DNA of 29,583 nt from an uncultured Gemmatimonadales bacterium (GTDB taxonomy: Bacteria > Gemmatimonadota > Gemmatimonadetes > Gemmatimonadales > GWC2-71-9), in assembly GCA_963825055.1 (NCBI GenBank), contig CAWGSK010000031.1, forward strand, positions 1-29,583. Reading direction: 5' to 3'. The notes beneath the pieces are model-generated. The model made no database searches. It saw only the letters and a program-made list of their open reading frames with translations, and had not been told where the DNA came from. Shown here one piece after another: positions 16,949-21,996 of this stretch (position 1 is its first letter; every line of letters begins with the position of its first letter). The position numbers and the translations under genes were made by a program.

Positions 16949-18568
16949 ATGCCCGGAACCACAGGCCGTCCCCGTCGGGTCTGGCCGCTCGCCGTCCTCG
17001 TCCTGACGCTCGCGATCACGCTGGTCGCGGCGGCGGAGGCGTGGATGGGTGTGTACCGGCACCGCCGGACATCCGAGCACCTGCTGCGGGATTATGCCTC
17101 GTTCGCCGTGTGGACCTACCAGCATTCCGCCAGCACATCCCTGGGCGAGGGCGCGTGGTTTGCCCTGAACCCCATTCTGCACGACCCGCTGCATGAGAAC
17201 CGGCCTGTCCCCACCTCGGTGCGGATCCCGGTCTACCTCGAGCGGAGCCTGCAGAGCTGCCACTGCGCGGTGCCCTGGCGCGCGGAATCGTATTTCAGCT
17301 TCACCGTGGGCGCGGATACGCTGGACGTGACCGGAGGCCCGATCGAGGCGGACTTCGGCCGCTGGCTCACCGATACGCTGAACGCCGCCGCGCGCGTGCC
17401 GGGCAGTTCCCGGCTGGCCGTGATCGCGGCCACCAGCGGACCGCGCCCGGCCGTAGTGGCCTACGGGCTCATGCCCACCGTGTGGGCCGATACCGTTCTC
17501 TACGGTTTCGTGTTCGACAACGCGTCCCTTCCTGCGCTCTTTCACGATGCGCTTGTCAGCACCGACGTCCTTCCGCCGGCCGTGGCATCGGGGCTTGCGG
17601 CCGATTCGATCGTGGCGGTCAGGGTAACGACCGCGGATGGCGTGACGCTCTACCAGTCCGATTCGTGGCCGGCGGAGGCCCTGTTCACCGCTCACGATTC
17701 AATCGTTCCGCGCAACGGGGGCCTCCGGCTGGAGGCGACCGTGCTTCCCCCGCTGGCTAATCGCGTCTTTGCGGGGGACAACGCACGGTCGAGACTCCTC
17801 TTCCTCCTCGCCATCGTGCTGGCCGCGATCGCCCTCACCGTCGTGGCGATGCGGCAGTTCCAGCGCGAGCGGGCTTTTACCCGGCGCCAGGCGGACTTCG
17901 TGGCTGCGGTGTCCCATGAACTGCGCACACCGCTGGCGCAGATCCGGCTCTTTCTGGAGACCCTGCGACTCGGCCGTTATGACGGTGATGCGGAACGGGA
18001 CTGGCTGCTCGAGCACGTGGACCGTGAAACAATCCGCCTCTCGCACCTGGTGAGCAACGTCCTCCAGTTCAGCCGCGGCTCCATGGAGCACGCCGACCTC
18101 GCCCCGGCGGATGTGGCCGCCGAGGCCGCGGATGTCGTGCGCGGTTTCCAGCCGCTGGCGGAGTCGCGTCGGGTGACCGTTCGCGCGGAACTGGACGAGG
18201 GCGCGGCGGCGCCGCTCAATCGTGAGTTATTTCGCCAGCTCCTGCTGAACCTGCTCGACAACGCGGTGAAGTACGGTCCGGAAGGCCAGCGGGTGGAGGT
18301 CCGGGTGGCACGTGACAACGGGACCGTGCGGTTGTCGGTGTCCGACCAGGGGCCGGGGATTCCTGCCACCATGCGCGACCGGATCTGGGACCCGTTTGTC
18401 CGGGGCGACGACACCTCGGCGCGCGCGATTGGCGGGAGCGGGATCGGGCTGTCCGTCGTGCGCGATGCGGCGCGGCGCCACGGCGCCACCCTCCGGCTGG
18501 AAGATGCAGCCGGTGGTGGCAGCGTGTTCATCATCGATTTCCCCGCGGCCGGTCCATCGGTCTCATGA
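16949..18568 (+). CDS. Membrane sensor histidine kinase (2 TM, large extracytoplasmic domain with CHC motif)
   Basis: AGGAG RBS, H-box SHELRTPL, N-box NLLDNAVKY, G1 DQGPGI and G2 GSGIGL. Confidence 0.94.
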   Translation: MPGTTGRPRRVWPLAVLVLTLAITLVAAAEAWMGVYRHRRTSEHLLRDYASFAVWTYQHSASTSLGEGAWFALNPILHDPLHENRPVPTSVRIPVYLERSLQSCHCAVPWRAESYFSFTVGADTLDVTGGPIEADFGRWLTDTLNAAARVPGSSRLAVIAATSGPRPAVVAYGLMPTVWADTVLYGFVFDNASLPALFHDALVSTDVLPPAVASGLAADSIVAVRVTTADGVTLYQSDSWPAEALFTAHDSIVPRNGGLRLEATVLPPLANRVFAGDNARSRLLFLLAIVLAAIALTVVAMRQFQRERAFTRRQADFVAAVSHELRTPLAQIRLFLETLRLGRYDGDAERDWLLEHVDRETIRLSHLVSNVLQFSRGSMEHADLAPADVAAEAADVVRGFQPLAESRRVTVRAELDEGAAAPLNRELFRQLLLNLLDNAVKYGPEGQRVEVRVARDNGTVRLSVSDQGPGIPATMRDRIWDPFVRGDDTSARAIGGSGIGLSVVRDAARRHGATLRLEDAAGGGSVFIIDFPAAGPSVS

Positions 18569-19254
18569 ACCCCAGGATTCTCGTGGTCGAGGATAATGCC
18601 GACCTGGCTGACGGCCTGAGACACAACCTCGAGCGTGAGGGGTACGATGTCGTCCTGGCGGGAGATGGCCGGGAGGGGCTCAGGCTCGCGGGTGTCTCCT
18701 CGCCCGACCTGGTGATCCTGGACCTGATGCTGCCGGGTCTCGATGGTTACAAGGTGCTGGAGGGCATCAGGGAGGCCGGCAATCCTGTCCCGGTCATGAT
18801 CCTGAGCGCCCGGGGCGAGGAGGCCGACAAGGTCCGTGGCTTCCGCCTTGACGCGGACCAGTACGTTACGAAGCCGTTCGGGTTGCTCGAACTCCTCGAG
18901 CGGGTGCGCGCACTGCTCCGGCGCAGCGCTTCCAGCACCACCAACGGGCGCGACGGACCAATCACGTTCGGCGTCGTGTCCGTCGATCCCGAGGCCCGCG
19001 CGGTGGAGGTGAACGGCGCGCCGGTCTCGCTCACGCCGAAGGCATTCGACCTCATGATGGCCCTCATCCGCCGCGACGGGCGGGTGGCGAGCCGGGTGGA
19101 CCTGCTCCGCGAGGTCTGGGGATCGCCCGGGGACGTGATGACCCGCACCGTCGACAGCCATATGGCCGAGCTGCGCCGCAAGGTGGAACCCGATACGTCC
19201 GAGCCCCGCCATTTCCTGACGGTGTGGAAGGTTGGCTACCGCTTCCAGTCCTGA
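18565..19254 (+). CDS. OmpR/PhoB-family response regulator
   Basis: ILVVED, LVILDLMLPG, YVTKPF and winged-helix TRTVDSHMAELRRK...GYRF. ATGA overlap with the kinase. Confidence 0.95.
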   Translation: MNPRILVVEDNADLADGLRHNLEREGYDVVLAGDGREGLRLAGVSSPDLVILDLMLPGLDGYKVLEGIREAGNPVPVMILSARGEEADKVRGFRLDADQYVTKPFGLLELLERVRALLRRSASSTTNGRDGPITFGVVSVDPEARAVEVNGAPVSLTPKAFDLMMALIRRDGRVASRVDLLREVWGSPGDVMTRTVDSHMAELRRKVEPDTSEPRHFLTVWKVGYRFQS

Positions 19255-19255
19255 G

Positions 19256-20283: not shown

Positions 20284-20298
20284 CCTAAGGAGTTTCTC

Positions 20299-21996
20299 AT
20301 GGCTGTCCTGCTGACGCTCGCCCTGACCGCAGCCCTTGCCTTCCCTCCCGGTGCCCCGCCCGCAGCGCCCGTGGTGGATGCCGCGTGGCTGAGGGAGCAT
20401 GTGAGTGATGCCAACATTGTCCTGCTGCACGTCGGCCCCGCAGCGCGATACGCTGAGGCCCACATTCCCGGCGCCCGCTACACCACCATGTCCGGGCTGT
20501 CTACGAGCTCGGAGAGTCGCTCCCTCGAGCTCCCGCCACTGGCCCAGCTCGACTCGACCCTGGAGTCCCTCGGGATTTCGGACGACAGCCGGATCGTGCT
20601 CTACTGGGACCAGGGCTGGGTCACTCCGACCACGCGGACCTGGTTGACCCTGGACCGCGTCGGGCTTGGCGATCGGGTATCCATCCTCGACGGGGGTCTG
20701 GACGCGTGGCGCGCCGCCGGCGGCGCGGTCACCTCCGAAGCGCCGGCGACTGCCAGGCCCGGGCACCTCACGCCCCACCTGCGAGAGGTCACGGTAGAGG
20801 CGAAGTACGTTGCCGCCCACCTGCGCGATGCGAAGGTGACGATCGTGGATGCGCGAACGCCGCAGTTCTACGACGGCAGCGATGCCGGCGGCCAGCCCAG
20901 GCCCGGCCACATTCCCGGCGCCCGGAACGTGCCGTACGTCAGTTTTGTCGACGAGACCGACCATTTCCTGCCCGAGGACCAGGTCCGGCGGCTCTTCGCA
21001 AAGGCGGGGGTCACTGGCGAAGGCCGGGTAGTGGTCTACTGCCACATCGGTCAGCAGGCGACCCTCGCCTACTTCAGCGCCCGCCGACTCGGCTACGACG
21101 TCCGGCTGTACGACGGATCTTTCGAGGAGTGGAGCAGGCTGGATGACGAGCCAGTGGTGCAGCTGAAGCAGGCCCGGGCGCGGCTCATGACCACGGAGCA
21201 CCTCGCCCGCATGGTAAGCATCCCGGAGTGGAAGGTCACCGTCATCGATGCGCGCAGTGACCTGGGCGCGTACCTCGAGGGGCACATTCCCGGCGCCGTG
21301 TTCCTTCACAACGAGACGCTCCGGTGGACCGGCAACGGTGTCCCCGCAGACCTCCTGCCCGCCGAGTCGTATCGCGCGCTGTTCGAGCGGCTGGGCGTCC
21401 GGCGTGACCGGCCGGTCGTGATCTACAGTGCCGGTGACCAGGCTGACTTTCACGCGTCATTCATTGCCTGGCTGCTGCGTGGATTCGGCCACCCGCAGGT
21501 CTACCTTCTGGACGGTGGACTGGTGAAGTGGAAGGCGGAGCAACGGCCGGTCACGCAGGAATATCCTGTGGTCGAGGGTGGCTCACTGGCCGGGAAGCCC
21601 TTCGCGCCCGCGCTGGTGGGAACGGAGGAGGTGCACCGGGCCGTGACCAGCAGGTCTGCCGTGCTGGTGGATGCTCGGCCGCCGGCGCAGTACACCGGGC
21701 AGGCAGGCCCGCAGATGCGGCGTGGGCACATTCCCGGCGCGATCAGTCACCCCTGGATCGGTGACCTGCAGGGCGCCGATGGCCAATGGGCATGGAAGAA
21801 GGTGGAGGCGTTGAAAGCGGCCTATGCGGCCCAGGGGGTCACGCCGGACCACGAGATCATCGTGTACTGCAATACGGGCACGGAGGCCAGCCACCTGTAT
21901 TTCGCCCTGAGCGAACTGCTGGAATACCCGCGCGTTCGGGTTTACGTGCCAAGCTGGACGGCATGGGCGGCTGATCAGGGGTTGCCCGTGGAATAG
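20299..21996 (+). CDS. Four-domain rhodanese/sulfurtransferase (two fused tandem units) with a signal-peptide-like N-terminus
   Basis: TAAGGAG RBS and MAVLLTLALTAALA. HIPGA occurs four times. Catalytic loops are YCHIGQQ (domain 2) and YCNTGTE (domain 4), followed by YDGSFEEW and YVPSWTAW. Confidence 0.92.
   Translation: MAVLLTLALTAALAFPPGAPPAAPVVDAAWLREHVSDANIVLLHVGPAARYAEAHIPGARYTTMSGLSTSSESRSLELPPLAQLDSTLESLGISDDSRIVLYWDQGWVTPTTRTWLTLDRVGLGDRVSILDGGLDAWRAAGGAVTSEAPATARPGHLTPHLREVTVEAKYVAAHLRDAKVTIVDARTPQFYDGSDAGGQPRPGHIPGARNVPYVSFVDETDHFLPEDQVRRLFAKAGVTGEGRVVVYCHIGQQATLAYFSARRLGYDVRLYDGSFEEWSRLDDEPVVQLKQARARLMTTEHLARMVSIPEWKVTVIDARSDLGAYLEGHIPGAVFLHNETLRWTGNGVPADLLPAESYRALFERLGVRRDRPVVIYSAGDQADFHASFIAWLLRGFGHPQVYLLDGGLVKWKAEQRPVTQEYPVVEGGSLAGKPFAPALVGTEEVHRAVTSRSAVLVDARPPAQYTGQAGPQMRRGHIPGAISHPWIGDLQGADGQWAWKKVEALKAAYAAQGVTPDHEIIVYCNTGTEASHLYFALSELLEYPRVRVYVPSWTAWAADQGLPVE

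Follow-up and report, generated by a model that had tools for sequence, protein, structure and literature searches.

A conserved kinase, regulator and rhodanese module in Gemmatimonadales with a candidate sensing site in a predicted dCache domain

The window analysed here is a 29,583-nucleotide stretch from an uncultured Gemmatimonadales bacterium (assembly GCA_963825055.1, contig CAWGSK010000031.1, positions 1 to 29,583), which makes up contig C31 of a 3.5-Mb genome that is 87% complete. It contains four plus-strand open reading frames (ORFs) in the order sensor histidine kinase, response regulator, rhodanese 1 and rhodanese 2 (Table 1). A preliminary description had read these co-directional genes as an extracytoplasmic sulfane-sulfur sensing and handling module, in which a Cys-His-Cys (CHC) motif of the kinase would be the sensing element. 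The analysis presented here indicates that the module is real, conserved and apparently undescribed, and that the candidate sensing site is a different one.

Table 1 Features of the module and its immediate surroundings (positions are those of the window)
Feature	Position	Strand	Basis and remarks
Predicted regulator box before kinase, CACA/TACA, 11-base period	16867..16892	+	Matrix, 14.7 bits
Promoter-like TTGCCG-17-TAACCT, just downstream of kinase box	16895-16923	+	Read by eye
Sensor histidine kinase, 539 aa	16949..18568	+	Pfam, hydropathy, AlphaFold2, Foldseek, VIA-align
H78, H82, Y96, clade-specific, candidate ligand/metal site	17180..17236	+
C104-H105-C106, family-wide Cys pair, likely disulfide	17258..17266	+
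M175, same candidate site	17471-17473	+
D181, same candidate site	17489-17491	+	T182 adjoining
OmpR/PhoB-type response regulator, 229 aa, Asp53	18565..19254	+	Pfam Response_reg and Trans_reg_C; start overlaps kinase stop
Predicted regulator box before rhodaneses, three half-sites, 11-base period	19255..19291	+	Matrix, 21.6 bits
Rhodanese 1, tandem pair, loop CMVGLR	19351..20283	+	2 Pfam stretches; signal-like N-terminus
Rhodanese 2, two fused tandem pairs, loops CHIGQQ and CNTGTE	20299..21996	+	4 Pfam stretches; signal-like N-terminus
Terminator-like hairpin with T-rich tail, 3' of last gene	22052..22075	+	Consensus scan

Pfam matches and hydropathy give the kinase the order first transmembrane (TM) helix, periplasmic domain, second TM helix, HisKA (His323) and HATPase_c. 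The domains, adjacent genes and His and Asp residues of a HisKA kinase paired with an OmpR/PhoB-type regulator are all present. The nearest named homologs of the kinase come from Gemmatimonadales and Gemmatimonadaceae, and an NCBIfam search with the regulator returned no equivalog above its cut-off among the best 25 matches. Pfam and PDB sequence searches with the periplasmic sensor gave no match, Pfam Cache families included, and its Atlas matches at 0.92-0.95 are clusters without names. An AlphaFold2 model built from 106 family sequences (predicted local distance difference test score, 93.6) shows the dCache layout between the two TM helices: a long helix at the N-terminus with two PAS-like modules. 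The top Foldseek and VIA-align rows are indeed dCache domains at 12-14% identity, led by the KinD sensor (PDB 4JGO; Foldseek E 7e-6; VIA-align Z 12.6, root-mean-square deviation 4.3, 198 residues). The model thus predicts a dCache fold for the kinase sensor. Members of this sensor family occur in 107 of the 251 genomes searched within its own taxonomic family. A contig scan using full-length kinases brought up generic kinases for the most part (family members from 8/80 rows), and a class-wide search found the broad kinase family in several families, with the MPxxxDT motif of the kinase in none of the newly fetched loci.

The six rhodanese domains announced for the two downstream genes are present (Pfam, 2 and 4), arranged as three tandem pairs, and only three of them hold a catalytic Cys. 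The active-loop Cys codons lie at 20119 (CMVGLR), 21040 (CHIGQQ) and 21868 (CNTGTE); in every pair the leading domain lacks such a Cys. Paired domains with the catalytic Cys in the second alone characterise tandem thiosulfate and mercaptopyruvate sulfurtransferases (TST/MST), the PDB matches being 1UAR, 3P3A and 1URH with E values down to 1.7e-37; sulfurtransferase activity is predicted. Assignment to the SseA equivalog NF008557 (103.5 and 239.5 bits against a cut-off of 250) and to ExtH NF040901 (37.1 and 116.7 bits against 200) was rejected. The start of rhodanese 1 is probably GTG 19351 and not 19297, since GGAG stands just upstream and the ortholog in L176 begins alike; the same protein has an extra Cys next to its C-terminus (20275-20277). 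Both N-termini are hydrophobic, as the preliminary description had noted, although the window's two lack the basic n-region that many homologs have. Full-length homologs behind kinases of the clade defined below begin with short hydrophobic segments, many of them preceded by a basic residue; across homologs the rhodaneses look exported, and export of the window's two is a prediction.

Rhodanese architecture differs among lineages, the constant member being the CHIGQQ/CHVGQQ pair, with the CMVGLR-like and CNTGTE pairs variable. The four-domain fusion occurs in one piece in 11 genomes of 251 searched, and in 10 of these it lies beside, or in one genome (G162) a contig break away from, a kinase of the clade defined below; G204 is the exception. 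Two-domain relatives are far more widespread and also stand behind LytS/LytTR or behind no regulator, often with YedE1E2 and a desulfurase. In five loci the exported rhodanese cassette follows an unrelated LytS-like kinase with His-bearing membrane helices and a LytTR regulator (L369:3907-5741, L370:8375-10257, L377:7314-9153, L382:3830-5754, L383:6587-8237), which would make this pair a second regulator of the cassette. CNTGTE-like rhodaneses adjoin SoxY, SoxZ-like and metallo-hydrolase genes in L368, L385 and L386.

The kinase has exactly two cysteines, C104 and C106, and both lie in the CHC motif between two hydrophobic segments, just as first reported. We compared this pair with the neighbourhood of related kinases, which were collected with their flanks from genome searches and two collection scans; 153 distinct near-full-length sequences were kept for a tree, and truncated, frameshifted and duplicate rows were left out. 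A profile built from the three tandem pairs of the window served to score downstream rhodaneses, on the same strand and within 3 kb, and a locus with less than 2.5 kb downstream and no match was counted as too short to score; one ThiF-rhodanese, which lies about 4 kb from L222, was removed by hand. One branch of the tree, with support of 1.0, consists of the kinases that combine HxxxH, CxC and MPxxxDT, the window's included. Its 32 loci have a rhodanese behind the regulator in 25 cases, none in one (L281), and are too short in 6. Outside this clade not one of 93 scorable kinases has a downstream rhodanese (28 more are too short): 26 CxC kinases have none and 6 are too short, with corresponding counts of 3 and 2 for CxxC kinases and 64 and 20 for those with neither motif. 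CxC or CxxC is thus present in 37 family kinases outside the clade, 0/29 scorable ones beside a rhodanese. CxC alone does not co-vary with neighbouring rhodanese genes across the 153 kinases, and the claim that CHC is the distinguishing sensing motif is not supported; for CxC alone, this is an outcome that the preliminary description had itself named as refuting. The rhodaneses track the clade instead.

The distribution of cysteines points to a different role for the pair. The middle residue of CxC varies freely in the family, and exactly two Cys are found in 87/153 periplasmic domains. Two cysteines near position 104 with none at the end of strand beta5 occur in 69 kinases, one near 104 with one at the beta5 end in 28, a single Cys in 6, and CxC together with a beta5 Cys in none. 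As the family cysteines come in pairs, a C104-C106 disulfide is suggested, probably an inherited one, and the pattern looks as if the partner Cys had moved. The 28 kinases with the partner after beta5 (L050, L037, L042, L034 and 24 more) are reminiscent of the disulfides of CSS domains.

Residues other than the cysteines distinguish the clade. H78, H82, Y96, M175, D181 and T182 are present in 32/32 members as against 0-1 of the 37 other CxC/CxxC kinases; H78 also occurs in 23/84 and H82 in 9/84 of the remaining kinases. Among the clade rows dropped from the tree, L160, L231, L238 and L265 have a rhodanese; the partial L275 has none within 2.3 kb. When 401 genomes of the order were searched with a clade profile, 31 rows scored strongly; 21 of these were new, and 20 of the new loci were fetched (one lay at a contig end), 13/20 from a second family. 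These loci, gathered after the prediction had been formed, show a rhodanese downstream in 17, none in 2 (L429, L432) and too little sequence in 1. Across the 51 clade kinases of both sets, H82, C104, C106, M175, D181 and T182 are invariant, with H78 in 50/51 and Y96 in 49/51; the 51 form 29 clusters at 70% identity, and L428 is 99% identical to L266. In the L281 exception, an exported-looking DUF442/Blh-type sulfur transferase with HCTVGWR lies upstream, and DUF442 is a working rhodanese (PMC9163753). Judged from these alignments, the sulfur genes are tracked by H78, H82, Y96, M175, D181 and T182, and not by CxC.

A CACA-N7 repeat with an 11-base period stands ahead of both the kinase and the rhodanese genes. 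It was scored with a matrix made from 21 sites of 16 clade loci, the window excluded and close relatives included. The stretch 19255-19280 is, together with its duplicate on contig C9 (see below), the top of 7,066,100 genome positions, and the kinase-side site is one of 86 genome sites with at least 12 bits. The remaining high-scoring sites lie mostly inside or beside unrelated genes, and a wider regulon was rejected. In the kinase region, at least 12 bits were reached by 16/20 non-training clade loci versus 20/117 other family members, and in the region after the regulator by 11/16 versus 8/117. In the later set the repeat precedes the rhodanese in 15/17 loci, including L433, where two genes are inserted between. 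Rhodanese loci were also fetched regardless of kinase, and of the 18 listed out of 20, 17 score below 8 bits and L368 scores 31.3 bits; L368 belongs to G162, in which a different contig ends with the clade kinase and its regulator. Other family members often carry related repeats (TGACA, TTACA), and further clades of the dCache kinase family each have 11-base repeats and downstream genes of their own (L292 and L278, TGACA; L203 and L215, TTACA; L167 and L210, GTCAG). The recognition helix of the regulator reads TVDSH in 28/29 clade members and is not among the 25 commonest variants outside. A sigma-70 consensus scan found no promoter, the promoter-like element of Table 1 included. Given the repeat before both promoters, its distribution and the clade-specific recognition helix, we consider it very likely that the regulator controls the rhodaneses through the predicted repeat.

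Sulfur genes other than rhodaneses accompany the module in relatives. YedE1 and YedE2 come next in 12/17 rhodanese loci of the later set and a class-V aminotransferase in 11/17; in the first set YedE was found in 6/25. The aminotransferase keeps the pyridoxal phosphate Lys, has its best PDB matches among SufS-type desulfurases, and contains RxGCFC in all eight complete sequences of the nine examined from the later set; we take the RxGCFCNPG form to resemble molybdenum cofactor sulfurases. YedE1E2 imports zero-valent sulfur in Cupriavidus (PMC10812762). A small rhodanese-fold protein, separate or fused, follows YedE2 in L414:8574-9146, L415:8555-9166, L416:8696-9265 and L218:6918-8108; it lacks a loop Cys, and its RRRGC or RRRNRC ending resembles the arm of a sulfur carrier. 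In one genus, a heavy-metal-associated (HMA) chaperone or a heavy-metal ATPase comes directly after the sulfur cassette (L414:10567-10788, L418:7530-9785, L419:866-3121). The proposal of a sulfur module is thereby supported in part, through conservation of the module, the transport and desulfurase genes of relatives and a shared repeat that points to regulator control; the part that assigned specificity to CHC is not.

We favour, at roughly even odds (a probability of about 0.5), a mechanism with a sulfur species as the ligand of the His/His/Tyr/Met/Asp site, activation of both promoters by the regulator, and exported rhodaneses that carry sulfane sulfur back or forth, passing it to YedE1E2 or taking it from there in genomes that have this transporter. 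That the signal is a sulfur species at all (polysulfide, sulfane sulfur or thiosulfate) seems slightly better than an even bet. The kinase and regulator would then be a two-component system that senses a periplasmic reduced-sulfur compound and switches on two predicted-exported rhodaneses. The ligand would be received at the site of H78, H82, Y96, M175 and D181, possibly through a bound metal, and the inherited C104-C106 disulfide may tune the signal without setting its specificity. His323 would phosphorylate Asp53, and the regulator, on its CACA-N7 repeats, would activate its own promoter and that of the rhodaneses, which would carry sulfane sulfur as Cys-persulfides. In many relatives this sulfur may be exchanged with YedE1E2, with the small rhodanese-fold protein whose C-terminus is RRRGC, and with a cysteine desulfurase of the cytoplasm. 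A bolder version is tentative and has, in our estimate, the smaller chance of being right: a new membrane kinase family that senses periplasmic sulfane sulfur or polysulfide directly, through a probably metal-holding His/His/Tyr/Met/Asp site within a dCache domain, and drives a relay of exported rhodaneses that feeds YedE1E2.

Several points weigh against the favoured mechanism. The grouping of H78, H82, Y96, M175 and D181 into one site is a candidate derived from sequence, and we presume that such a His2-Met-Asp-Tyr set would suit copper, silver or heme equally well. The link between kinase and rhodanese arose once on the tree, so that the counts given above are non-independent and measure retention. 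Some clade kinases have no rhodanese (L281, L429, L432 and the incomplete L275), and the rhodanese cassette does not need this sensor, since it also occurs behind LytS/LytTR (L369, L370, L377, L382, L383) or behind no regulator. PF04143 (YedE) was not found in the window's 87% complete genome, where a YedE transport step is thus conjectural; PF04143 occurs in 1/5 genomes with the four-domain rhodanese. The wider sulfur metabolism of five module-bearing genomes showed no pattern (PF01507 in 3/5, PF04143 in 1/5, SoxZ in 3/5, cysKM over cut-off in 2/5). A desulfurase in the operon could mean export of sulfur rather than import. Lastly, SoxYZ-hydrolase clusters, of the kind that CNTGTE relatives adjoin in L368, L385 and L386, may serve alcohol dehydrogenases (PMC11582611).

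The alternative that survives best has a thiophilic metal (Cu(I), Ag(I), Hg or Cd) as the ligand, held by the His/His/Met/Asp residues of the sensor, which would then induce periplasmic sulfur delivery for metal precipitation or thiol repair. M175, D181 and H82, invariant in clade kinases, and H78, in 50/51, would suit it, and known systems offer precedents, as the CusS periplasmic domain binds Cu/Ag and DsbRS ties copper to disulfide genes (PMC10141476). Metal-handling neighbours speak for it too, namely the HMA chaperone or heavy-metal ATPase of L414, L418 and L419 in one genus and a CutC gene upstream in L198, but they are confined to these few loci. In addition, YedE1E2 imported, and did not export, sulfur in one study (PMC10812762), and the kinase was rejected as a CusS/CzcS heavy-metal kinase with scores far below the cut-offs (TIGR01386, 132.9 against 292.6; NF007345, 92.9 against 423). 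We regard a metal signal as unlikely. Somewhat less credible is direct persulfidation or polysulfide bridging of C104/C106, perhaps by a rhodanese itself, as the sensing step. CxC is invariant in 51/51 clade kinases, and a periplasmic Cys pair is the switch in the CSS-domain phosphodiesterase PdeC (PMC8846402), but the pair recurs in 37 kinases outside the clade, 0/29 scorable ones beside a rhodanese, and the 28 kinases with a partner Cys at the beta5 end, never together with CxC, look disulfide-like.

We consider it improbable that the signal is cyanide or another small anion of this kind, perceived by the sensor at a metal or heme centre, with periplasmic detoxification to thiocyanate as the induced response. 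Transfer of sulfur from thiosulfate to cyanide is the textbook rhodanese reaction (PMC5093147), and the desulfurase and YedE could provide the sulfur, with TauE near in L199 and L375. No other cyanide-related neighbour was noticed in the gene lists, in a survey that included no search aimed at such genes, and the three different active loops would suggest a relay over a single reaction. An HOCl or peroxide detector that uses M175 in the manner of HprS/YedV, with the rhodaneses buffering periplasmic thiols, is just as doubtful. M175 is invariant, and periplasmic Met residues are used by YedV (bioRxiv 10.1101/2021.09.09.459708). L212, L214 and L231 have MsrPQ-like and MsrB genes upstream, and the L027 lineage has genes for superoxide dismutase and a peroxiredoxin there, but such neighbours are limited to these two lineages and the MsrPQ-like pair of the window's genome is on another contig. 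Inherited synteny with no regulatory link, which the single origin on the tree would allow, is very improbable, given a repeat that lies ahead of both promoters, remains beside the rhodanese where genes have been inserted and is absent from loci that lack the kinase, and given a link that persists while rhodanese architecture differs among lineages.

The assembly around the module mixes strain variants, as the whole window is a near-duplicate of C9:284805-314370 (81-95% identity) and many other contigs are duplicated too. The second copy of the region on C9 shows 95% identity over 21 kb, and its kinase gene carries many 1-2 base indels. The CHC codons of the window version are matched by short-read contigs from three soil runs of one study, each piece showing 0-1 differences; the source sample may itself be among these runs. 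No RNA run was listed among the sequencing runs searched. The terminator-like hairpin is weak evidence, because the scan found 4 such elements against 1.9 expected in shuffles. Elsewhere the window carries a cytochrome c oxidase cluster (9317-13234; COX2 with cytochrome c, COX1, COX3, plus a small membrane protein) as well as, on the minus strand at 3287-6771, an extracytoplasmic function-type sigma factor followed by a Ser/Thr kinase with tetratricopeptide repeats. Short tandem repeats at about 23262-23320, near the start of ORF 23147-23743, repeat GQGGQD in translation and are likely intergenic.

If the bolder version of the mechanism is true, the module would let common soil Gemmatimonadales sense external zero-valent sulfur directly; bacterial sensing of external sulfur has been called poorly understood (PMC11582611). 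Kinase, regulator, predicted operator and six clade-specific residues make a complete testable unit that could be moved to E. coli like ThsSR, would assign a role to a dCache family that has no name, and might be turned into a biosensor for its ligand, whatever that is. Full-text literature searches, mostly without subscription papers and without supplements, gave no paper on the module, in line with the preliminary view that the arrangement is not a described system.

Kinases that respond to sulfur compounds are known, among them ThsS and TtrS (PMC5408782), RsrS and TspS (PMC5093147), and NreB (PMC9918477, PMC13478379). ThsSR and TtrSR, of Shewanella and Salmonella, are likewise two-component systems with a periplasmic sensor, for sulfur oxyanions, and adjoining target genes. 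They differ in a PhnD-like (phosphonate-bd) sensor and respiratory reductase targets, where the window has a predicted dCache domain and sulfurtransferases, and the window kinase, with no Pfam phosphonate-bd match, falls outside the group as defined in PMC5408782. RsrSR of Acidithiobacillus caldus is also of the EnvZ/OmpR type and a proposed sulfur-compound sensor that activates adjacent sulfur genes, but it controls tetH-doxDA through a 19-bp element; the comparison is by description only (PMC5093147). NreBC of Bacillus licheniformis resembles the module in a kinase that senses reduced sulfur and raises sulfur-handling genes, yet its sulfide sensor is a PAS domain with three Cys and a [2Fe-2S] cluster, and its targets are sqr and pdo (PMC9918477, PMC13478379). 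Membership with NreB was rejected, as the two Cys of the window kinase lie between TM helices and no PAS match was found. SoxT1B with SoxR/sHdrR of Hyphomicrobium shares external sulfur sensing and the involvement of YeeE/YedE proteins, but its signal passes through a transporter to cytoplasmic repressors, whereas the membrane kinase of the window would sense outside (PMC11582611). Many clade loci have YedE1E2 (PmpAB), the split YeeE pair whose Cys are conserved, after the rhodanese; PmpAB is tied to ArsR regulators and a persulfide dioxygenase, the clade to exported-looking rhodaneses and a desulfurase, and the pair was not found in the window's genome (PMC10812762). The rhodaneses share an inactive N-domain and an active C-domain with the tandem TST/MST enzymes, to which the window adds signal-like N-termini, a four-domain fusion and the loops CHIGQQ, CMVGLR and CNTGTE. 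A CSS-motif domain (PF12792) was rejected for the sensor, with no Pfam match and a kinase rather than EAL output; an Atlas feature score of 0.86 is no more than a lead. KinD and other dCache sensors have a like fold at the low identity given above, with no sequence match to the window's sensor family. The sulfur-sensing kinases compared here use a PhnD-like or an Fe-S PAS domain, and the kinase of the window would use a predicted dCache domain instead.

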